28,224 nt of DNA from a bacterium (GTDB lineage Bacteria; Hinthialibacterota; Hinthialibacteria; Hinthialibacterales; Hinthialibacteraceae): positions 1 through 28,224 of the forward strand of contig CAXXSM010000139.1 of assembly GCA_963663405.2 (NCBI GenBank), written 5' to 3'. A program made the position numbers and the translations under genes. Below the pieces are notes generated by a model. That model ran no database searches. It was not told the DNA's origin and worked only from the letters and a program-made list of their open reading frames with translations. Position 1 is the first letter of the stretch; the number at the start of each line of letters is the position of its first letter. Below are positions 1 through 20,516 of this stretch, piece after piece.

Positions 1-646
1 GATCCACATCCTTCCAAACCCCCATGTACGCCGCGGCGGCTCTCGGTGAAAAATCCATTGAAATCATGCAGAAATTAATAGATCGGGGAGCTCTTGCGAA
101 GGATGTATTTATAATGCGGCGGAACACCGTAACCTGGAGGGGATGAAATTCCTTCTCCAACACGGCGCGGATATCAATGAAACTAATTATAACGGTGAAA
201 GCGGTTTAATCCTCGCCGCTAAGAAGGGTCATTTCGATGTAGTGAAATTTCTCGTAGAAAAAGGGGCGAATCTATCAAAAGGTAAGAGTCAATATAACGC
301 CTTGTACCATGCAGTGGAAAATGGCCATACTGAAATCGTCAAATTTCTTCTCGAACAAGAAATCGATCCAAGCGGCGCCTTGGTCATCGCGGCGGAGAAA
401 GGATATGAGGAAATCCTGAAAACACTCTTGGATCATGGCGGGGATATCAACGAAACCAACAACAAATACACCCCATTAACCTGCGCGGTCGTTCGCGGAG
501 GATTGAATATAGTCCAAATCCTGATCGATCGCGGCGCCGATGTCAATCGACCGGATGGAAATGGAAAGAAAGCCCTTCAATACGCCCGTGAGTATGAAGA
601 CAAAGAAATCGCGGACATTCTAATCAAAGCGGGAGCAGAGAATTAA
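1..646 (+). CDS. Ankyrin-repeat protein, array copy 1 (5' truncated by window edge; 1-nt frameshift near 99-101)
   Basis: Frame 3 from base 3 reads STSFQTPMYAAAALGEKSIEIMQKLIDRGALA, matching paralog 3 (SVSWQPIMYTAAGIKKNTVEIMTKLLDRGASV). Adding one A in gcgaagga restores KGCIYNAAEHRNLEG-MKFLLQHG into ORF 143..646. Ankyrin motifs G-x-T/S-x-L-x-x-A...LL-x-x-GAD-x-N. Confidence 0.9.
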
Positions 647-668
647 GCCTGAAAGAGGAGCGCACAAA

Positions 669-1814
669 ATGACTGATTCCAAGAGACATTCCATTTCTCT
701 TTATTGCGCGTGGAAGAAAATTTTCCTAATTCCCCTCGTTTTCCTTCTCGCCTCCTGCATGGACGCAACGCCGCCAATCATCAAAGCAGTCAAAAGCGGC
801 TCGCTCGAAGAAGTGCAGAAAGCGATTCGATACAAAGCGGATTTGAACGCGGTTGACGAAAGGGGATTAACGGCGCTGCTGATTGCGATGGGAGCAAAAC
901 AAACACAGCAAGACAAAAGTTATCAAAACTACGATATCGCAATCGCATTAATCGAAGCCGGAGCGGATTTGAACGCCGAGAATCAAAACGGCATTACCGT
1001 TTTGGACTACGCTATATGGTGGAGTAAAACTGATCTCTTCAAATTGCTGGTCGAAAAAGGCGCCAAAATAAACGATATAGGCAATTCCACCCTCGTTCGC
1101 GCGATACACTGCAGAAACATAGAGATTTTCGATTTCATTTTAGAGAAAACAGAATATGAGTATCCAGAAACAGCATATGGATCCGCCGTGAAGGCAGCGG
1201 TTTCGAGCGATAAACACACCGTTGAATTCTTGACAAAACTCCTCAATCGAGGGGCCAATATACATGGATATTTTCGAGAAGCGGCGCAATATGGAAATGT
1301 GGAAGCGATGAAATTCCTACTCCAACATGGCGCCGACATCAACGAAACATCTATTGATGGTGGGAGCGGATTAATTTCCGCTTCGTATAACGGTCATGTC
1401 GAAGCAGTACGATTTCTACTCGAAAAGGGCGCCGATACATCCATGATGCAAGACCAGCGCAACGCTTTGTATTGGGCGGTAGATAAACAACACTCAGAAA
1501 TCGTCGATCTTCTTCTCGAAAAAGAAATCGACACAAGCGGCGCCTTAGTTCTCGCGGTGGAAAAAGGGGATGTGAAGATCATAAAAAAACTCCTAAAATA
1601 TAGCGTGGATTTAAACGAAACAAATCTTAAGGGTTATACTCCATTAACCATCGCTGTGATTCAAAGCGATAAAAAAGCGGTTCAAATCCTAATTGAACAC
1701 GGCGCCGATGTATACCATCCAGACAAAAACGGGATGACCGCCCTGCAATACGCCCAAGAGTTTGAAGATGAAGAAATGATAAAACTCCTAAAAAACGCGG
1801 GCGCGAAAGAGTAA
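669..1814 (+). CDS. Ankyrin-repeat lipoprotein, array copy 2
   Basis: Repeated ankyrin motifs (GLTALLIA, GITVLDYA, GYTPLTIA, GMTALQYA); signal peptide with lipobox LAS-C; SD gaggag upstream. Confidence 0.93.
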   Translation: MTDSKRHSISLYCAWKKIFLIPLVFLLASCMDATPPIIKAVKSGSLEEVQKAIRYKADLNAVDERGLTALLIAMGAKQTQQDKSYQNYDIAIALIEAGADLNAENQNGITVLDYAIWWSKTDLFKLLVEKGAKINDIGNSTLVRAIHCRNIEIFDFILEKTEYEYPETAYGSAVKAAVSSDKHTVEFLTKLLNRGANIHGYFREAAQYGNVEAMKFLLQHGADINETSIDGGSGLISASYNGHVEAVRFLLEKGADTSMMQDQRNALYWAVDKQHSEIVDLLLEKEIDTSGALVLAVEKGDVKIIKKLLKYSVDLNETNLKGYTPLTIAVIQSDKKAVQILIEHGADVYHPDKNGMTALQYAQEFEDEEMIKLLKNAGAKE

Positions 1815-1882
1815 GCGCCGAAAGGAGCGTACACAATGACCTGCGCCAGGAGACATTCTATTTCTCATTATTGTACGTGGAA
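1737..1882 (+). repeat. Near-identical gene-junction direct repeat (copy A; partner at 2916-3061)
   Basis: Manual alignment with 2916-3061: 4 mismatches in 146 nt, covering the 3' end of one gene, the spacer and the 5' end of the next. Confidence 0.9.
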
Positions 1883-2993
1883 GAGAATCTTCCTTATCCC
1901 TCTCATTTTCCTTCTCTCTTCCTGTATGGATGCGACGCCGCCGATCATCAAAGCGGTCGAGAGCGGCTCGCTCGAAGAAGTACAGAAAGCGATTCGATAC
2001 AACGCGGACCTGAACGCGCTTGATGAGGAGGGGATGACCGCGCTAATGATTGCGGTCCGGGGAGTGCGGACACGTCTCCCCAATGGACAAATCCATTTAA
2101 CGTCCTTAGACACCAGGATCGCCAAAGCCTTGATTGAAGCCGGGGCGGATTTAGATACCTCTAAAAAAAATACTACGGTGTTAGACTTAGCGATCTTGCG
2201 AAATGAACCGGATCTCGTTGAACTGCTTCTTGAAAAGGGCGCCCCGCTAACTACTTTCGATAATTCTTCCCTTAAACACTCCATCTATTGTGGCAACCTG
2301 GATATTTTCGATCTCATATTCAAAAAAACAATAAAGACGAATCCATCCGTATCTTGGCAGCCCATCATGTACACAGCAGCGGGGATCAAAAAAAACACCG
2401 TGGAAATCATGACGAAATTATTGGATCGAGGCGCCAGCGTTAAAGGATGTTTTTATATTGCGGCGGAACACGGAAATATGGAAGGGGTAAAATTCCTGCT
2501 ACAACACGGAGCAGATCTCAACGAAACAAATTTCAATGGAGTAACTGGTTTGTTTCTCGCCGCGAAAAGAGGACATCTTGAAACAGTTAAATACCTTCTT
2601 GAACAAGGCGCTGATTTGTCAAAAGGCAAATATCAATTTGACGCCCTGCTGCTGGCGGAGGAACGCGGTTATCATGAAATCGTGGATATCCTTTTTGATT
2701 ATGGCATCAATACAAGCGGCGCTTTATTCATTGTAGAAAAAACCGGACATGCGCATGTCATGAGAAAACTCCTGAAGCGCGGCGCGGATACAAACGAAAC
2801 CAACCCCGATGGATACACTCCTTTAACTTTCGCCGCTGTTCATGGAGGATTATACGAAGTCCAAATCCTGATTGAACATGGCGCCGACGTCAACCACCCA
2901 GACAAAAACGGAAAAACCGCCCTGCAATACGCCCAAGAGTGTGAAGATGAAGAAATGATAAAACTCCTCAAAAACGCGGGCGCGAAAGAGTAA
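1836..2993 (+). CDS. Ankyrin-repeat lipoprotein, array copy 3
   Basis: Same architecture as copy 2; lipobox LSS-C; SD aaggag. Confidence 0.93.
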   Translation: MTCARRHSISHYCTWKRIFLIPLIFLLSSCMDATPPIIKAVESGSLEEVQKAIRYNADLNALDEEGMTALMIAVRGVRTRLPNGQIHLTSLDTRIAKALIEAGADLDTSKKNTTVLDLAILRNEPDLVELLLEKGAPLTTFDNSSLKHSIYCGNLDIFDLIFKKTIKTNPSVSWQPIMYTAAGIKKNTVEIMTKLLDRGASVKGCFYIAAEHGNMEGVKFLLQHGADLNETNFNGVTGLFLAAKRGHLETVKYLLEQGADLSKGKYQFDALLLAEERGYHEIVDILFDYGINTSGALFIVEKTGHAHVMRKLLKRGADTNETNPDGYTPLTFAAVHGGLYEVQILIEHGADVNHPDKNGKTALQYAQECEDEEMIKLLKNAGAKE

Positions 2994-3061
2994 GCGCCGA
3001 AAGGAGCGAACACAATGACCTGCGCCAGGAGACATTCCATTTCTCATTATTGTACGTGGAA
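2916..3061 (+). repeat. Near-identical gene-junction direct repeat (copy B)
   Basis: Offset 1179 nt from 1737-1882; more diverged versions at the junctions near 600-720 and 4080-4200. Confidence 0.9.
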
Positions 3062-4175
3062 ACGAACCATCCTTGTCCCTCTTGTTATCCTTCTCGCCTC
3101 CTGCATGGATGCGACGCCGCCGATAATCAAGGCGGTCGAGAGCGGCTCGCTTGAAAAAGTGCGGAAAGCGATTCGATACAAAGCGGATCTGGAAGCGGTT
3201 GACCAATACGGCAATACAGGGCTGATGATTGCGATCCAAGGAAAACGGCATGATTATGGGAACAGAATCTACAGTTACGGATCTCCGAACTTCGATATCG
3301 CCAAGGCTCTGATCAAAGCCGGGGCAAATGTGAACGCCGATAATCGAAGTGGCGTAACAGTATTAGACTGCGCCATCGGGAAAGCTCAACTCGATCTTAT
3401 AAAACAGTTGATTGAGAAGGGAGCGAAAATAAACGCTCTCGATGATTCCACTCTGACAAAAGCCATCGAATGTAGAAATTTTGAGATCTTCAATTATCTA
3501 TTTGAGAAGACAAAAGACGTGAAACAAACTTCAGCTTACGTGTCCGCCATGCGCGCGGCGGCGGAATGGGAAGCCAAAGCGATTCCGATCATGACGAAAC
3601 TTCTCGAGCGGGGAGCCAGTGTAAAAGGGAGTTTTTACGCAGCGGCGGAGTGCGGAAATTTGAAGGCGATGGAATTTCTTCTCCAACATGGCGCTGATGT
3701 AAATGAAACTGGTTCTAGTGGTATAAGTGGATTGGCCTGCGCCTCTCTTAAAGGCGATCTCAAAACAGTACGATTTCTTCTTGACCGCGGCGCCGATCTT
3801 TCAAAAGAAAATACTCAATACAACGCCCTATACTACGCACTATTTAATGGTCACACAGAAATCGCTGACCTGCTCATTGAAAAGGGAATCGACACAAGCG
3901 GCGCCTTGGTCCTCGCGGCGGAGAAAGGTCAAGTGAGCATCATGAAAAAACTGTTTACGCGGGAGGTGAACACCAATGAAACCAATACGGATGGCTACAC
4001 GCCTTTAACCGTTGCGGTGATTCGCGGGGGATATGACGCGGTTCAATTTCTTATAGAAAACGGAGTGGACGTCAACCATCCAGACAAGAACGGGATGACC
4101 GCCCTCCAATACGCCCAAGAGTTTGAAGATCAAAAAATGATAAAACTCCTGAAAAATGCAGGCGCGAAGGAATAA
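3015..4175 (+). CDS. Ankyrin-repeat lipoprotein, array copy 4
   Basis: Same architecture; lipobox LAS-C; SD aaggag. Confidence 0.93.
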   Translation: MTCARRHSISHYCTWKRTILVPLVILLASCMDATPPIIKAVESGSLEKVRKAIRYKADLEAVDQYGNTGLMIAIQGKRHDYGNRIYSYGSPNFDIAKALIKAGANVNADNRSGVTVLDCAIGKAQLDLIKQLIEKGAKINALDDSTLTKAIECRNFEIFNYLFEKTKDVKQTSAYVSAMRAAAEWEAKAIPIMTKLLERGASVKGSFYAAAECGNLKAMEFLLQHGADVNETGSSGISGLACASLKGDLKTVRFLLDRGADLSKENTQYNALYYALFNGHTEIADLLIEKGIDTSGALVLAAEKGQVSIMKKLFTREVNTNETNTDGYTPLTVAVIRGGYDAVQFLIENGVDVNHPDKNGMTALQYAQEFEDQKMIKLLKNAGAKE

Positions 4176-4196
4176 GCGCGAATCGGAGCCCACTCA

Positions 4197-5354
4197 ATGA
4201 CCGGCGCGGGTAAATATTTCCAATCGGTTTGGATACGCAAGGAAAGAATTCTGTTCTCCCTGCTTCTTCTCCTCACATCATGCGCCGATACTACCCCTCC
4301 CATCATCAAAGCCGTGAATAGTGGATCGCTGGAAGAAGTGAAAAAAGCGATCCAATACGGGGCGGACCTGAACGCGACAGACGAGAAAGGGTATAGCGGT
4401 CTCCTTATCGCGATCCGGGGACGGTGGACACGTCTCGACAGTGGACACACATTTCTCGAAAAACCGGACGTCAATATCGCCAAAGCTTTGATCGAAGCTG
4501 GAGCGGATATCAGTATTCCAAATCGAATGGGTTACACGGCGTTACGATACGCGATTTGGGAAAAACAAACGGATCTCATCAATTTATTATTGGAAAAGGG
4601 AGCAAGTATAAGCATACTAGAAGACTATTTCTTCTATGACATCTGCTACCGGTGTAACCTGGAAATCATCGATCTTGTATTAGACAAGATTGAAAAAGAA
4701 AAACGAACCACAATTTATCAAACCGCCATGCAAGCCGCGTCGCGCCGAGAGAAAGATTCCATTGAATTGATGACGAAACTACTCGATCGAGGCGCTAATG
4801 TGAAAGGAAGTTTTTATTTCGCGGCATTAAATGGAAATATAGAAGCAATGGAATTTCTTCTCCAACACGGCGCTGATCTCGATGAAACGAATTCAATTAA
4901 CAAAAGTGGCTTGTATTACGCGATTGAAAACGGTCATCTCGATGCGGTACGATTTCTTCTTGAAAAAGGAGCCAGTATTACAGCCGGTAAAGGCATATTA
5001 GAGGCCCTAAAAACGGCAGTTGAGAAAGGTCATGCCGAAATCGTCGATCTCCTTCTAGAAAACGGTGTCAACAAACACGGACTTTTGACAATTGCAGCGG
5101 AAAACGGACAAATCGAGGTGATGAAAGTATTATTAATGCGGGGCGCAAATCCTAACGAAACCAACCAAGAAGGTCACACGCCATTAACTTCCGCTGTGAT
5201 TCATGGTGGATTAAAGCCACTCCAATTCCTAATCGAAAAGGGTGCGGACGTCAATCACCCAGATAAAAAAGGAGTCACCCCCATTCAATACGCCCAAGAT
5301 TACAAAGACGAAGAAATGATTGTGATACTGAAAAAGGCAGGCGCGAAGGAGTAA
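4197..5354 (+). CDS. Ankyrin-repeat lipoprotein, array copy 5 (most divergent N-terminus)
   Basis: Same architecture; lipobox LTS-C; SD ggag. Confidence 0.93.
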   Translation: MTGAGKYFQSVWIRKERILFSLLLLLTSCADTTPPIIKAVNSGSLEEVKKAIQYGADLNATDEKGYSGLLIAIRGRWTRLDSGHTFLEKPDVNIAKALIEAGADISIPNRMGYTALRYAIWEKQTDLINLLLEKGASISILEDYFFYDICYRCNLEIIDLVLDKIEKEKRTTIYQTAMQAASRREKDSIELMTKLLDRGANVKGSFYFAALNGNIEAMEFLLQHGADLDETNSINKSGLYYAIENGHLDAVRFLLEKGASITAGKGILEALKTAVEKGHAEIVDLLLENGVNKHGLLTIAAENGQIEVMKVLLMRGANPNETNQEGHTPLTSAVIHGGLKPLQFLIEKGADVNHPDKKGVTPIQYAQDYKDEEMIVILKKAGAKE

Positions 5355-5387: not shown

Positions 5388-5424
5388 AAAATTAAAAGGC
5401 CGAAGGAACAACACCTTCAGCCTT
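5388..5424 (-). terminator. Intrinsic terminator of metK-ahcY (possibly bidirectional)
   Basis: Minus strand AAGGCTGAAGG-TGTTGTT-CCTTCGGCCTT followed by TTAATTTT, between convergent genes. Confidence 0.75.
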
Positions 5425-5451
5425 CAGTCTTCAACCTAATCCCCTAATGAA

Positions 5452-6912
5452 TCAATACCGGTAATGCTCCGGTTTATAAGGGCCTTCAATCGGCACGCCG
5501 ATATAATCCGCCTGTTTCTGTGTGAGTTTGGTGAGTTTGGCCCCCAGTTTACCTAAGTGTAAACGGGCGACCTCTTCATCCAATTCTTTGGACAGACGGT
5601 ACACGCCGGTCGCTTTTCGTTCTTTCCAAAGATCAATCTGCGCCAAGACTTGATTGGTAAATGAGTTCGACATCACGAATGAAGGATGTCCCGTAGCGCA
5701 GCCCAGATTGACCAAACGCCCCTCAGCCAACATAAAGATCGAATGGCCATCCGCGAAAGTGAACTGATCCACCTGCGGTTTAATATTCATTTTCTTGATC
5801 CCAGGGATCTTTTCGAGCGCGTTGACCTGGATCTCGTTATCGAAATGACCGATGTTACAAACGATGGATTGATCCTTCATCTTTTCCATGTGCTCTGCCC
5901 GAATGACATCACAATTGCCGGTTGTTGTGACGAAGATATTCGCTTCCTCCAGGGCGTCTTCAAGCGTCGTCACTTCAAAACCTTCCATGCAGGCCTGCAG
6001 CGCGCAGATTGGATCAATCTCGGTCACCAGCACACGGGCGCCAAAGCCACGCATCGACTGCGCGCAGCCCTTGCCGACATCGCCATATCCACACACACAG
6101 ACGACCTTGCCCGCGACCATCACATCCGTGGCCCGTTTGATACCGTCCGCCAACGATTCGCGGCAGCCGTAAAGGTTATCGAATTTCGATTTCGTTACAG
6201 AGTCGTTGACATTGATTGCCGGGAACAGAAGCGTTCCCTTCTCCATCATTTCGTATAGCCGATGAACGCCCGTCGTTGTCTCTTCGGAAACTCCTTGAAT
6301 CTCCTTGACTATCTCGTGCCATTTCGTGGGATTCTTCTGGAGTTCTCTTTTCAGCAACGCGTTAATGATCGCCAGTTCCTTGATTTCCGTCGGTTCATCA
6401 AGAAGTGTGGGATCGTCTTCCGCCTGATAGCCGCGATGGACCAACAACGTCGCGTCGCCTCCATCATCCACAATCAGATTCGGCCCTTTGCCGCCGGGGA
6501 ACGAAAGCGCCTGAAGCGTGCATTCCCAATACTCTTCGAGCGATTCGCCTTTCCACGCGAAGACCGGCGCGCCGGTTTCCGCGATAGCGGCGGCGGCGTG
6601 ATCCTGCGTGGAGAAAATATTGCAGGAAGCCCAGCGCACATCCGCGCCCAGCGCCTTGAGCGATTCAATCAACACCGCCGTTTGAATGGTCATATGAAGC
6701 GAACCGGTGATCCGCGCTCCTTGCAACGGTTTTTCGGCCCCGTACTTTGCACGGACCGCCATCAGGCCCGGCATTTCCTCTTCCGCAATCGTGATTTCTT
6801 TGCGTCCGAAATCAGCCAAGGCTTTATCGGCGACTTTATTGGGCAGGCCGGAATAATCCGGCAACACGATGCCCGCGAGATCGATTCCAGACCGTTCAAG
6901 TACTTGAGTCAT
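5452..6912 (-). CDS. ahcY: Adenosylhomocysteinase (SAH hydrolase)
   Basis: Motifs [91 protein letters not shown]. Confidence 0.98.
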
Positions 6913-8276: not shown

Positions 8277-9242
8277 ATGTCCAGCCGAAAAGATCCCGTT
8301 AAAATCTTTAAATCCCTCTCGGATGAAACCCGTCTCCGTATCCTTTGGCTGCTGGATGGAAATGAATTGAGCGTCAACGACATGGCGGAAATCCTTGGCT
8401 CGACACAATCTCGAGTTTCACGCCATCTTACGGTCCTCCGGGAATCGAATTTTCTCGAAAGCCGCCGTGAAGGAACCTGGGTTTATTACCGTAAACCGGA
8501 CGATTCAATCCTTGAATGGGAAATCGCCCAAGCCTGGCAATTCGTCCGTGAATGGGCCGGACGTCATGAAGAGGCGAAAAACGATCACAAACGATTAAAA
8601 ATAATTTTACACAATAAACGGATGCGCAGCCGGCGTTTTTTCGGCAAACACGCCTCGCATTGGGATGAGATCCGCATGAAACAATGCGGCGAACTCGTCA
8701 CCTTGCAAGCGATGGAATCCTTGATCCCACCCCAATTGACTGTTCTGGATGTCGGGACGGGAACCGGGCATCTTCTGATTCCTTTGGCGCGCATCGCTCG
8801 CAAAGTGATCGGTGTCGATCACTCCCCCCAAATGCTCAATCATGCAAAAGAAAACGCCCGTAACGCCGGTGTCGAGAATATCGAACTCCGTCAGGGAGAA
8901 ATCGATGAACTCCCTTTGCAGGATGAAGAAGTAGACGCGGTTTTCGCCAGCCTCGTCCTCCATCACGCCCCGGATCCACGGAAGGCGATCCAGGAAATGG
9001 TCCGTGTCGTGAAACCGGGAGGACCGGTCACGATCATCGATTTACAGCAACATGCCGAGGAATGGATGCGGGATGAATTGGCCGACACATGGCTCGGATT
9101 CGAAGAAGAAGACATGCGGAAATGGTTCCACCAATCAGGATTGACGAATCCACAGTGGATCGAAGGTGAACCACCGGCCAATGGAAACGCGAAAACCGCA
9201 AAGGTGCGTAGTTTTATTTTCTATGGGCGGAAAGAAATGTAA
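8277..9242 (+). CDS. sahR: ArsR-family HTH fused to a class I SAM-binding methyltransferase domain; SahR/SamR-like regulator of the SAM cycle
   Basis: N-terminal FKSLSDETRLRIL...QSRVSRHL...RREGTWVYY; C-terminal VLDVGTGTG, LVLHHAPDP, RVVKPGG; divergent from metK-ahcY. Confidence 0.85.
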   Translation: MSSRKDPVKIFKSLSDETRLRILWLLDGNELSVNDMAEILGSTQSRVSRHLTVLRESNFLESRREGTWVYYRKPDDSILEWEIAQAWQFVREWAGRHEEAKNDHKRLKIILHNKRMRSRRFFGKHASHWDEIRMKQCGELVTLQAMESLIPPQLTVLDVGTGTGHLLIPLARIARKVIGVDHSPQMLNHAKENARNAGVENIELRQGEIDELPLQDEEVDAVFASLVLHHAPDPRKAIQEMVRVVKPGGPVTIIDLQQHAEEWMRDELADTWLGFEEEDMRKWFHQSGLTNPQWIEGEPPANGNAKTAKVRSFIFYGRKEM

Positions 9243-10249: not shown

Positions 10250-11234
10250 TTAATACAAACACCATTCCGCGACAGCGGTAAATTCACCAAAGATGATCTC
10301 TCCCGCGCCGGCGGGGGAAAGACGGCCATTCGCGTTGACGCCGATGTCCCAAAATGCGGCTTCCGATTCCGGATCGAGGTAAGCTTTGCTTTCCAATTCT
10401 TCATCAGTCAATAGGTCATACCATTCGTTTTCAGGGGTAAAACTAATCGCATGGACGCGGTTGGCCCACCAATATTGCAGCGCGAGATCGGCGCCGTCGT
10501 CATCGTCCATACCGATATTGAATCCCCAAACCTGACCAGGCGCCATGGAGAGGCCTAATTCTTCATCTTCAAAGTTCATTTTGTGAAGCCGGGTTTCCAA
10601 AATCCAGCCGCCATCAACTTCCTGTCCATAACCGTACACTTGCTGATCTTCTCCATAATACCAATCCACAAGCAGGGACCAGCGAATGGGATCTTGTGGA
10701 GCGTCGAGCGCATCATCCCAGTTGGAGAAACGGCCTTCGTAGTTGAAATAGACGTGGCCGCCATATTCGGGGGGGGGTAGAGTCCCAATTGTAATCGAAA
10801 TCAGTATTGGTTGGATCGACGAGTAATTCAATCGCGTCATCAGACCAGAAGCGGGGATTTTCATCGTTCGAGCGGACGACATCATCTTTTGCGTCTACGG
10901 CGATATAAAGATAGTTGTCGTCATAGGCGAGATAGAATGTGAAACTGGTATCTTCCGGGCTGTCCCATTCTTTCACAGTCGGGTAATTCAAAATCCACGC
11001 GTTTTCTCCGGGAATCACAGAAATAGGTTCAAAATCGCCGTATTCTCCGGGAGAAATGATACCATCCAACTGCACGGAATCATTCACTACTTTGGGAACG
11101 GTCAACGTCGTCGCGTCGATATCCGACCAAGGGCCTTCGGATGTTTCATCAAAATCAAGCACTTGGGATGAGACCGGTAAACCGGTTGCAAGAATTAAAG
11201 ATACGAACAATATAGGCACAAATCTTCTTCTCAT
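10250..11234 (-). CDS. Secreted CBM9/DOMON-like sugar-binding domain protein (1-nt frameshift in G9 tract 10769-10777)
   Basis: Signal peptide MRRRFVPILFVSLILA; VQLDG, LAYDDNYLYIAVDAKDD, WSDDAIELLVDP, GWILE, WGFNIGMDDDDG. ORFs 10713..11234 and 10250..10885 join if C9 becomes C8. Confidence 0.75.
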
Positions 11235-19538: not shown

Positions 19539-20516
19539 ATGACCACTCTCTCAGAATCAGCCAATCAATTCCTTCAATACTTGATCACGGAAGAATGGCG
19601 GTCTCCTCATACGATTGAAAATTACCGGCGGGATATTAAATTTCTGAAAACATACCTGTCTGAATCAGGCTATCCATCCGTTTCAGACTCTGAATCTGAG
19701 CCGGATTTTGATCTTCTCATTATCGACACTCTCTGCATACGCGGTTTTATGACCTATCTCGTTGATCGTGGAAACGTTCCACGGACCATCAACCGGCGGT
19801 TGGCGGCTTTGCGCTCGTTATTCACATTTCTTGAACGAAGGGGCTTGGTTTCGAAGAATCCCATCACCCCCATCCCCTTCATGCGGGAAGAGAAACGCCT
19901 GCCTGTGTTTCTCGACCAAGAACGGGCCGTACAACTCGTCGAACATCCAACGCAGGATGTATCTTCCCCAACAGAGAATGACACAACATCCGCATTGGCG
20001 CTCCGTGATCGGGCCATGTTGGAGGTATTATACGCGTCAGGCATGCGGATATCCTCTCTGACACGTCTGAATCTTGTCGATTTGGATCTTCGTCAGGCCA
20101 CCGTTCACATCTTGGCGAAAGGCAGGAAAGATCAGATTCTTCCCTTAACGGATGTGGCCGTCACATCATTGAAGTCGTATCTTGCCGCGCGTAAAATTCT
20201 ATTATCAAAACCGGAAACTAAACGGAATAAGAAAGCCCCCGAAGCCTTGTTTATCGGACGATTCGGTGAACGTCTCACCCCACGAGGCGCGCAGTTGCGG
20301 CTAAAAAAATTCGCGCGATCCCTTGGTCTGGGCAAAACCACGCCCCACACGCTCCGGCATTCCTGCGCCACCCACTTGCTGGAAAACGGAGCCGATCTCC
20401 GATTCGTGCAGGAACTCCTCGGTCACAGCAGCCTCTCTACCACACAGCGGTACACCCACGTCACGCTCTCACGCATCCAAGACGTCTATCAAAAAACTCA
20501 TCCCCGATCGAAATAA
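19539..20516 (+). CDS. xerC: Tyrosine recombinase XerC/XerD family
   Basis: SPHTIENYRRD, TINRRLAALRSLF, RDRAMLEVLYASGMRIS, KGRK, TPHTLRHSCATHLLENGADLRFVQELLGHSSLSTTQRYTHV (R-K-H-R-H-Y intact). Confidence 0.9.
   Translation: MTTLSESANQFLQYLITEEWRSPHTIENYRRDIKFLKTYLSESGYPSVSDSESEPDFDLLIIDTLCIRGFMTYLVDRGNVPRTINRRLAALRSLFTFLERRGLVSKNPITPIPFMREEKRLPVFLDQERAVQLVEHPTQDVSSPTENDTTSALALRDRAMLEVLYASGMRISSLTRLNLVDLDLRQATVHILAKGRKDQILPLTDVAVTSLKSYLAARKILLSKPETKRNKKAPEALFIGRFGERLTPRGAQLRLKKFARSLGLGKTTPHTLRHSCATHLLENGADLRFVQELLGHSSLSTTQRYTHVTLSRIQDVYQKTHPRSK

Follow-up and report, generated by a model that had tools for sequence, protein, structure and literature searches.

The window analysed here is the entire contig G000:C139 (28,224 nt). 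It opens with a tandem array of four intact head-to-tail genes (381-386 aa; 669-5354, plus strand), preceded by a fifth copy, c0, which is cut at the contig start and whose longest ORF beginning with ATG spans 143-646 (167 aa) (Table 1). The start-to-start periods are 1167, 1179 and 1182 nt, the inter-gene spacers measure 22, 21, 21 and 21 nt, and a GGAG motif stands 8-9 nt before the ATG of each gene, which confirms the head-to-tail paralogs with 21-22 nt spacers described in an earlier note on this DNA, as four complete ORFs plus the truncated c0. The constant termini that it reported are likewise present, namely C-M-D-A-TPPIIKAV (C-A-D-T in c4) at the mature N-terminus and LKNAGAKE or ILKKAGAKE at the C-terminus; c4 is the most diverged copy and differs from the others in the n-region of its signal peptide. 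No promoter-like or terminator-like site above chance was found inside the array. A hairpin between the converging c4 and ahcY genes is terminator-like on the ahcY strand, and the array transcript may end there too. The GC content of the array (0.461 versus 0.469 for the genome) corresponds to native base composition, and no mobile-element frame was found around it.

Table 1. Features of the ankyrin gene array and its borders (positions in the window)
Feature	Position	Strand	Remarks
c0, 3' part of first copy	1..646	+	in frame from nt 80 to stop 644-646
Spacer, 22 nt	647..668	+	GAGGAG ahead of c1 start (sequence)
c1, 381 aa	669..1814	+	signal peptide, lipobox LASC (Cys30), 11 ankyrin repeats (residues 33-381)
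c1-c2 junction (c1 3' end, spacer, c2 5' end)	1725..1875, approximate	+	~97% DNA identity to c2-c3 junction
c2, 385 aa	1836..2993	+	lipobox SSC (Cys30)
c2-c3 junction, partner of c1-c2 tract	2904..3054, approximate	+	~97% DNA identity
c3, 386 aa	3015..4175	+	lipobox ASC (Cys30)
c4, 385 aa	4197..5354	+	lipobox TSC (Cys29)
Hairpin, 12 pairs, then T-run	5395..5425	-	pattern match only; between converging c4 and ahcY

The array had been described as running off the left edge of the stretch. Indeed, the contig starts within c0, and the 5' part of this copy is encoded on the minus strand of another contig, G000:C160, just downstream of trkH/trkA. The end of G000:C160 overlaps positions 1-238 of the window (238/242 columns, four one-base indels), and in Logan contigs from both run X1 and run X3 the same 10 letters precede window base 1, which supports the join. 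The "at least five" copies of the earlier note become exactly five, because trkA and trkH precede c0 on G000:C160. A PHP-domain gene and an APS kinase are also encoded upstream of the array, and ahcY, metK, methyltransferases and other housekeeping genes downstream.

No toxin, effector, Rhs, VgrG or lipase gene was detected in the 13 ORFs scanned over 14 kb upstream, where an effector had been anticipated and trkA/trkH are found instead, nor in the 19 ORFs scanned over 23 kb downstream, and no other immunity family or toxin domain adjoins the array in this scanned neighbourhood. In the organism's own genome (82% complete), Lipase_3 and AHH gave 0 matches each, the AHH result being a weak blank since the control genomes also gave 0. 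A full-looking T6SS cluster (ClpV, TssA, B, C, Hcp, E, F, G, VgrG, PAAR) is encoded on another contig (C57), which suggests that the organism takes part in contact-dependent conflict; no ankyrin gene is present at this T6SS locus. A few RHS repeats lie on other contigs.

Each copy is predicted to form an 11-repeat ankyrin solenoid beginning about six residues past the lipid-bearing Cys. In brief, Ank_2 (Pfam) matches all five pieces (E 3e-37 to 4e-61), the AF2 model of c1 contains 11 helix pairs over residues 36-376 (mean pLDDT 85.3), and the best structural matches are DARPins and ankyrin-R/B (6mol_A, E 2e-15, TM 0.63; 7v0x, TM 0.70). A candidate assignment to the Dot/Icm-type ankyrin effectors (NCBIfam equivalog) was rejected, with a best score of 103.6 bits for a cut-off of 600. 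The lipobox claimed earlier is present in 4/4 complete copies according to the lipobox rule of PROSITE PS51257 (six uncharged positions before L-[AST]-S-C, Cys at 29/30, K/R within the first seven residues), and the part of c0 on the neighbouring contig carries LLLSSC-MDTTPPILKAV. By this signal-peptide and lipobox criterion the array products are putative lipoproteins, and Lgt (LGT, E 6e-57) and LspA (Peptidase_A8, E 2.5e-35) are both encoded in the genome. The residue after the lipobox Cys is Met or Ala, not Asp; in Escherichia coli, a lipoprotein with a residue other than Asp at this position leaves the inner membrane.

Protein identity between copies is 52-61% (E 1e-118 to 2e-135), far beyond chance, with pairwise dS of 1.1-1.8 and omega of 0.22-0.34; the duplicates are old and each is under purifying selection overall. 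The strongly divergent internal repeats of the earlier note hold up, the divergence being concentrated in repeats 2-9: among c1-c4, mean pairwise identity is 0.79 in R1, 0.37-0.63 in R2-R9, 0.69 in R10 and 0.77 in R11. Within R3-R9, pN is 0.409 in the inner (concave-side) helices versus 0.242 in the outer ones at equal pS (0.61/0.63), and this order is reversed in the cap repeats (inner 0.110, outer 0.175). Repeat 2 contains a variable loop of 12-17 aa, which is missing from c0 and from a sixth, unlinked paralog. These sequence comparisons support a concentration of the differences between copies where ankyrin proteins bind ligands. The excess of changes on the concave face that had been expected from a per-site test was recovered in part: pN is higher in the inner helices, but no window of the genes has pN > pS, synonymous sites being near saturation, so that positive selection is neither demonstrable nor excludable. 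Both purifying selection and two short conversion tracts, at the c1-c2 and c2-c3 junctions, keep the end repeats conserved; pS over the last 30 codons is 0.15 for c1 versus c2 (0.42-0.62 for the other five pairs), and over the first 20 codons 0.24 for c2 versus c3 (0.51-0.72 for the other five).

Outside the source genome, the array family was found only as fragments from near-identical strains, and neither 40 related genomes nor the nearest MetK relative yielded a counterpart of the array. The nearest named relative of the lineage is a MAG labelled Candidatus Omnitrophota. In a near strain, c0 has a counterpart at 93% nt identity, c1 one at 94% aa and c3 one at 96.5% nt. The c1 counterpart, P0003, encoded on another public contig, shows 23 residue differences, all between residues 80 and 276, and zero changes in R1 and R9-R11; 12 differences fall in helices, nine inner and three outer (binomial p 0.049, for an interval chosen post hoc). 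The search for further copies suggested by the earlier note gave none beyond c0 upstream and one elsewhere, the sixth paralog, on contig C118, which has a membrane anchor in place of the lipobox and directly follows an ECF-type sigma factor and a zinc-finger anti-sigma-like gene. Only eight ankyrin genes are encoded in the whole genome, which is 8.4 Mb with free-living-type content.

Among known systems, the immunity lipoprotein Tli of Enterobacter cloacae is described as a periplasmic protein of six ankyrin repeats that protects against a T6SS lipase and cups it with the inner layer of its helices and a long loop that connects repeats (PMC11470151). The lipases of its partner group (Tle, proposed group Tle6) are said there always to be linked to ankyrin immunity genes (PMC11470151; bioRxiv 10.1101/2023.03.28.534661). 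Zhang et al. 2012 list ankyrin repeats as an immunity class, Imm-ank, and tandem runs of paralogous immunity genes, so that the earlier statement that ankyrin proteins form an immunity class agrees with the literature, both for Tli, a proven T6SS immunity protein (PMC11470151; bioRxiv 10.1101/2023.03.28.534661), and for Imm-ank and polyimmunity loci (PMC3482391). In that account, Imm-ank goes with Tox-AHH nucleases, against which immunity would operate in the cytoplasm; the tandem paralogs of the array, if they are immunity genes, would fit the "homogeneous" arrangement of polyimmunity loci (PMC3482391).

The array copies resemble Tli in having a lipobox and an ankyrin solenoid, and in diverging most in the inner helices of the central repeats and the repeat-2 loop. 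The differences are that Tli contains six repeats and its gene directly follows that of the lipase, while the array has 11 repeats, five copies and no lipase nearby. A Tli-type (Tle6 group) adjacency to an alpha/beta-hydrolase T6SS lipase was looked for in the 13 upstream and 19 downstream ORFs and is absent from them. In a PDB profile search, the best 60 of 574 matches are all generic ankyrins or DARPins. Unlike Imm-ank proteins, the array products are predicted to be exported lipoproteins, and no AHH, other toxin domain or immunity family adjoins them. A link to a polymorphic toxin, a toxin cassette or other immunity families, as in polyimmunity loci, was likewise sought at the array locus and not found. 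PldB/Tle5b of Pseudomonas aeruginosa is flanked by three tandem Sel1-repeat immunity genes; these encode periplasmic proteins and are tandem alpha-solenoid paralogs like the array genes, but of another repeat type and adjacent to their effector. DARPins and the membrane-binding domains of ankyrin-R/B share the fold and the concave binding face, but they are synthetic or eukaryotic, and the variation in the array is old paralog divergence (dS > 1), not that of a randomised library. Finally, periplasmic AnkB of P. aeruginosa and TPR lipoprotein adaptors such as NlpI are envelope solenoids holding endogenous partners; each is encoded by a single gene whose partners or neighbours are known, whereas the array has no visible link of this kind.

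Taken together, the array is best read as a candidate envelope binder set. The five genes would be transcribed together as a single operon, a reading favoured by their operon-like packing, with 21-22 nt spacers and a GGAG of their own. The products would be exported, with Lgt/LspA lipidating Cys29/30, a tether of about five residues would keep them near an envelope membrane, and the concave groove of repeats 3-9, together with the variable repeat-2 loop, would clamp a protein ligand. Because the groove differs while R1 and R10-R11 stay nearly constant, each of the five proteins would have a ligand of its own, bound in the same place and way as those of the others. This mechanism, from operon to groove binding, is considered probable. 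The "bank of envelope-anchored binders" of the earlier note thus survives as regards the solenoids, the lipoprotein signal and the groove divergence, but its immunity side lacks an effector link. The "natural DARPin library" is overstated: a hypervariable binder library was rejected in view of the dS and omega values and of the 94% identity of c1 with its near-strain counterpart, and no reverse-transcriptase domain, as a sign of diversifying machinery, was detected in the 19 window ORFs scanned.

It is possible, though less likely than not, that the whole explanation includes a polyimmunity role, in which the ligands would be foreign envelope-acting protein toxins and the array a homogeneous, chromosomal polyimmunity shield without a cognate effector gene, working like Tli. 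Several observations count against immunity: the scanned neighbourhood free of toxin genes, the blank searches for Lipase_3 and AHH (the latter weak) in the 82%-complete genome, the lack of an ankyrin gene at the T6SS locus, the native composition without a mobile-element frame, the 11 repeats compared with six in Tli, and the absence of any window with pN > pS. Immunity families usually spread patchily by transfer, and the finding of this family nowhere else is unlike such a distribution. That the end repeats are so strongly conserved points to a common docking role, for which an immunity protein would have no need. Much of what the earlier note had named as evidence against its own proposal is indeed what was found, that is, no effector, old copies under purifying selection and counterparts in near strains.

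The best-surviving alternative, although rather unlikely, is that the proteins are adaptors or regulators of the cell's own envelope proteins, the constant ends docking on a shared membrane partner and the groove holding an endogenous client such as a hydrolase, a secretin or an oxidative-stress enzyme. The housekeeping neighbours, the native composition and the stable old duplicates under purifying selection agree with this, as do the end repeats, which are the most conserved part, the lack of any change in R1 and R9-R11 between c1 and P0003, and the membrane-anchored sixth paralog beside sigma and anti-sigma-like genes; but no client is named by the neighbourhood, relatives should share a core envelope function and a counterpart was found in none of those searched, and five diverged grooves would require five clients. 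A further reading, judged unlikely, is a chromosomal shield or adaptor set independent of any effector, with five membrane-tethered 11-repeat solenoids co-expressed from one operon and with constant docking ends, in which each groove would capture a different foreign envelope-acting protein; it would amount to a standing, innate-type polyimmunity on an ankyrin scaffold in a little-known lineage. It is equally improbable that the proteins are displayed on the surface and target eukaryotes, whether grazers or hosts, or else prey cells, the variants covering different targets. Secreted ankyrin proteins of sponge and amoeba symbionts are proposed to act on eukaryotes, and the eukaryote-type interaction module, the tandem diversification typical of exposed proteins at host or predator interfaces, the lineage-specific family and the Met/Ala after the Cys, which would let the proteins leave the inner membrane under the E. 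coli rule, all fit display. Against it stand the eight ankyrin genes, compared with large expansions in symbionts, the free-living-type genome, the lack of any sign of surface export, and the age of the copies, which are conserved between near strains and not fast-evolving.

Very unlikely is a drift of redundant duplicates without distinct specificities, with c0 already decaying and the central repeats under relaxed constraint. Weak constraint could explain the central divergence, pN/pS is never above 1, and c0 is interrupted by a frame shift near window nt 100 and by two or more others on G000:C160; these represent sequence error or real decay, which are not separable, as split genes occur elsewhere in the assembly too (TrkH, TssG, an alcohol dehydrogenase, a CBM9-like gene) and read depth in the best run is only 2-4. 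Four copies have nevertheless kept frames of about 1.15 kb intact despite dS of 1.1-1.8 and assembly indel noise, omega is low (0.22-0.34), and the still conserved outer helices of the central repeats argue against uniform relaxation. Scarcely credible is an assembly artefact in which misassembled repeats inflated one or two genes into an array: the contig begins inside a gene copy, the overlapping contig ends disagree by four indels, depth is low and Logan contigs break at gene junctions, but the copies, 61-69% identical in DNA, are too unlike for collapse or inflation, separate Logan contigs from run X1 match every copy with 0 differences (although X1 is probably the source sample and so not independent), X5 contains segments of c2 and c3 at 100% identity, c0 (93%) and c3 (96.5%) have variants in X3 and X2 of a second study, another public assembly has a c1 counterpart (94%), the assembler alone fixes only the order around the two near-identical junctions, and the reads give no sign of the artefact that the earlier note wished to see checked.

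In summary, the array at present amounts to a paralog family specific to its lineage, built on a very common repeat fold and flanked by uninformative neighbours, and its value is mainly that of a candidate for expression and pull-down work. If the five targets differ, the envelope binder set would illustrate, in a compact natural case, how a single scaffold is retuned through changes in its groove, and its constant ends may show how such binders dock in the envelope. Should the targets be foreign toxins, ankyrin-lipoprotein immunity, so far represented by Tli next to its lipase, would extend to arrays without an effector in an uncultured lineage.

The window is one entire contig of the source genome (C139). 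Five ankyrin-repeat lipoprotein genes are arranged in tandem on it, the first of them (c0) cut by the start of the contig and the others (c1 to c4) intact. The start-to-start distances of c1-c4 are 1167, 1179 and 1182 nt, and the spacers of the array are 22, 21, 21 and 21 nt long, each with a GGAG 8-9 nt 5' of the ATG. Ankyrin models match five of the five pieces (Ank_2 of Pfam, E 3e-37 to 4e-61), and the identity from copy to copy is 52-61% in protein and 61-69% in DNA. The description of the array in the earlier note, made from the sequence alone, was thus correct, and its claim that the array runs off the left edge is borne out. Indeed, the rest of c0 was found on another contig of the source genome (C160). 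The start of C160, as reverse complement, coincides with window 1-238 in 238 of 242 columns, the exceptions being four one-base indels, and C160 encodes the 5' part of c0 that the window lacks, with its lipobox (LLLSSC-MDTTPPILKAV). This join is supported by Logan contigs of two sequencing runs (X1 and X3), in which the same 10 letters are present 5' of window base 1. On the same strand, 5' of c0, trkA and trkH are encoded, then a PHP-domain gene and an APS kinase. Since trkA and trkH lie directly upstream of c0, the array has exactly five members, where at least five had been announced.

Location of the array genes and of other features mentioned in the text (C, contigs of the source genome G000; L, stretches of such contigs)
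Feature	Location	Strand	Remarks
c0, 3' part	window 1-646	+	fifth copy, Pfam ankyrin match
c1	window 669-1814	+	381 aa, intact ORF
c2	window 1836-2993	+	385 aa, intact ORF
c3	window 3015-4175	+	386 aa, intact ORF
c4	window 4197-5354	+	385 aa, intact ORF
ahcY	window 5452-6912		downstream of array
ArsR-methyltransferase fusion	window 8277-9242	+	ArsR-type HTH, SAM-dependent methyltransferase
CBM9-like gene	window 10250-11234	-	split into overlapping ORFs
Tyrosine recombinase	window 19539-20516	+	Phage_integrase, SAM-like N-domain
TrkH gene	G000:C160:1520-3290		split into overlapping ORFs
Sixth paralog	C118, L007:1474-2649		391 aa
Ser/Thr-kinase fused to ankyrin repeats	C147, L111:3640-7062		1140 aa
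Acyl_transf_3 membrane protein	C16, L112:4796-6424		ankyrin-repeat insert
Alcohol dehydrogenase gene	C57, L028:1452-2551		split into overlapping ORFs
TssG gene	C57, L028:16720-17734		split into overlapping ORFs
T6SS cluster	C57, L028:4304-19000 and L110:80-4491

The reading frame of c0 appears to shift close to window nt 100 and again at two or more points on C160; in the overlapping bases as assembled on C160, the first of these shifts is not found. Elsewhere in the assembly, overlapping ORF pairs likewise split four single genes (see table). One-base indel errors seem to be numerous in this assembly, which bears on the reading of the frame shifts in c0. The depth of the best run is only 2-4. 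In a search of 5.8 billion proteins, the c0 ORF matched nothing except itself.

Downstream of the array, ahcY and metK converge on c4, and a 12-pair hairpin is located between c4 and ahcY. Neither inside the array nor between trkA and c0 are promoter- and terminator-like sites more frequent than in shuffled sequences; an operon is the simplest reading of the array. Its GC content (0.461) matches that of the genome (0.469). Past metK are encoded the ArsR-methyltransferase fusion, glycosyltransferases, a TPR protein, a prepilin peptidase and others. The fusion adjoins metK/ahcY and is possibly a methyl-cycle regulator or enzyme. At 14 kb from the array, the tyrosine recombinase precedes two genes that match no family and an MFS transporter, and the GC content falls to 0.37-0.40 at window 23-25 kb; this region could represent a small island that has nothing to do with the array.

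A lipoprotein signal rule after PROSITE, applied to c1-c4, recognizes all four complete copies, with the Cys at position 29 or 30, and both Lgt and LspA are encoded in the genome. When c1 was modelled with AlphaFold2 from six aligned rows (mean pLDDT 85.3, pTM 0.77), the model contained 11 helix pairs over residues 36-376, so that the solenoid is predicted to begin about six residues past the putatively lipidated Cys. The second of the 11 repeats (R1-R11) carries between its helices an insertion of 12-17 residues, which differs from copy to copy and is missing in c0 and in a sixth paralog encoded on contig C118. The best fold matches of the model are DARPins and ankyrin-R/B; a fold search and the best 60 of 574 matches of a PDB sequence search gave nothing beyond generic ankyrins and DARPins, and in the NCBIfam profile search all matches were far under their cut-offs and reflected generic ankyrin similarity only. 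An ATG codon directly follows the lipobox Cys (C-M-D) in c1, c2 and c3 (window 756-761, 1923-1928 and 3102-3107) and also in c0 on C160, while c4 has Ala there. No Shine-Dalgarno-like motif precedes this ATG in c1-c3 or c0. For the Tli protein of Enterobacter cloacae, a cytoplasmic form is reportedly produced as well, by initiation at internal start codons.

The mean pairwise identity per repeat is 0.79 in R1, 0.37-0.63 in R2-R9, 0.69 in R10 and 0.77 in R11. In R3-R9, pN is 0.409 in the first (inner, concave-side) helices versus 0.242 in the second (outer) ones, with pS of 0.61 and 0.63; the end repeats show the opposite, with pN of 0.110 in the inner and 0.175 in the outer helices. A counterpart of c1 with 94% identity (P0003), from a near or sister strain, is present on another public contig (10,998 nt) and is the only close relative among the 120 matches listed from 5.8 billion proteins. 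Its 23 residue differences from c1 all fall within positions 80-276, with a chance probability of about 3e-7 for a stretch picked after seeing the data; of the 12 located in helices, nine are inner and three outer (binomial p 0.049). At the gene ends, pS is 0.42-0.72 in most pairs, which indicates that the constant ends are mainly kept by selection on the protein; recent gene conversion as their sole cause was rejected on these values. Exceptions of low pS are the last 30 codons of c1/c2 (0.15) and the first 20 codons of c2/c3 (0.24), and the c1|c2 junction shares about 97% identity with the c2|c3 junction across about 150 nt. These tracts and junctions point to local gene conversion or unequal exchange.

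Judging from the sequence, the products of the array are probably envelope-tethered protein binders, of which the five copies would hold five different ligands, with an anchoring or docking mode that would be conserved and common to all. The inner-helix divergence in R3-R9, the lipobox and the ankyrin fold are consistent with the envelope binders of different specificities proposed earlier.

It can be suggested tentatively that the ligands are foreign envelope-acting toxins, i.e. that the array is an effector-less polyimmunity array. In E. cloacae, the lipoprotein Tli, composed of six ankyrin repeats, counters the T6SS lipase Tle in the periplasm and contacts it with its inner layer of helices together with a long loop that separates repeat 2 from repeat 3; lipases of this group (proposed Tle6) are reportedly always linked to ankyrin-repeat immunity genes (PMC11470151; bioRxiv 10.1101/2023.03.28.534661). 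Furthermore, ankyrin repeats are entered as 'Imm-ank', an immunity to Tox-AHH, in another report, which also describes polyimmunity loci of both the homogeneous and the heterogeneous kind (PMC3482391). Like Tli, the array proteins are plausibly a tethered ankyrin cup with a variable inner face; unlike Tli, they have 11 repeats and occur in five copies and, unlike Tli-type immunity genes, they lack linkage to a toxin, the defining feature of the latter. Indeed, no toxin, Rhs, VgrG, lipase, other immunity family or reverse transcriptase was found among the 19 window and 13 upstream ORFs scanned, so that the search for a nearby effector, advised in the earlier note, was negative and its poly-immunity reading, though possible, is left without the toxin link. 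A T6SS cluster is encoded on contig C57 (ClpV, TssA, TssE, F, G and VgrG, with two tandem sets of TssB-TssC-Hcp), and no ankyrin gene was found there. Its VgrG is followed by a 480-aa PAAR protein and a 353-aa gene without family match, which could be an effector/immunity pair. Neither Lipase_3 nor AHH was found in the genome (8.44 Mb, 170 contigs, 82% complete), the AHH blank being weak because control genomes also gave no match, and a few RHS repeats are present on contigs other than that of the array. In Pseudomonas aeruginosa, three Sel1-type immunity genes adjoin PldB.

Only eight Ank_2 genes are present in the genome, namely the five array copies and one each on C118, C147 and C16. The one on C118, the sixth paralog, shares 36-41% identity and the N- and C-terminal repeats with the array copies, has one extra repeat and a hydrophobic N-terminal anchor without lipobox Cys, and lies directly 3' of an ECF-type sigma factor and a zinc-finger anti-sigma-like gene. 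This sigma/anti-sigma setting, the housekeeping genes around the array and the conserved end repeats speak for array proteins that serve as adaptors of endogenous envelope proteins, a reading to which we give only slightly less weight than to foreign toxins. NuoE/NuoF-like genes follow the sixth paralog. The kinase-ankyrin fusion on C147 adjoins a DDE transposase, a LysM protein and an FHA-ABC transporter fusion, and the Acyl_transf_3 protein on C16 is encoded beside two alpha-L-fucosidase genes. Further comparisons are offered by AnkB of P. aeruginosa, NlpI-type adaptors and the ankyrin proteins of sponge symbionts. That the array encodes surface proteins aimed at eukaryotes or prey is an unlikely reading.

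Pairwise comparison of c1-c4 (Nei-Gojobori) gave dS of 1.10-1.81, dN of 0.29-0.41 and omega of 0.22-0.34. The copies are old duplicates under purifying selection and no fast-changing library, and the idea of a natural DARPin library is not supported by these values. Redundant copies simply drifting apart are very improbable.

An assembly artefact is hardly credible, and repeat collapse or inflation as the origin of the copies is ruled out by their DNA divergence. Indeed, separate Logan contigs of X1 reproduce each copy exactly, which is no independent support since X1 is probably the source sample. In addition, 151-nt contigs identical to the c2 end and the c3 start are present in X5 (second sample of the same study), and variants of c0 (686 nt, 45 differences, 1 gap) and c3 (226 nt, 8 differences) in X3 and X2, respectively, both of a second study. 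X2, X3 and X5 cover the array partly, and uncovered parts, such as most of c4, are uninformative at such depths. Only the gene order across the two near-identical junctions (c1|c2 and c2|c3) is assembler-dependent.

Matches to c2 at E<=1e-10 were found in 11 of 41 related genomes, the source genome included; the non-self ones have 28-42% identity over part of the query and are mostly ORFs of other sizes. The sixth paralog has matches in 2 of the 41, the source genome again included. The nearest MetK relative (80% identity) is encoded in a MAG labelled Candidatus Omnitrophota SURF_12, in which a search for the array family gave one generic ankyrin match only. Among the 120 matches of c2 listed from 5.8 billion proteins, identities above 33% were seen for none but P0003 and the proteins of the array itself. 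The best 150 of 337,779 matches among 1.84 billion representatives are giant multi-ankyrin proteins, except c2 itself and c4, and the nine loci on JGI metagenome contigs all have at most 33% identity. From these searches, the family is seen only in the source genome and near-identical strains. A narrow search of titles and abstracts found no description of a tandem ankyrin-lipoprotein array, which does not prove its absence from the literature. In summary, the array is a lineage-specific set among the exported bacterial ankyrin-repeat proteins, a known kind of protein.
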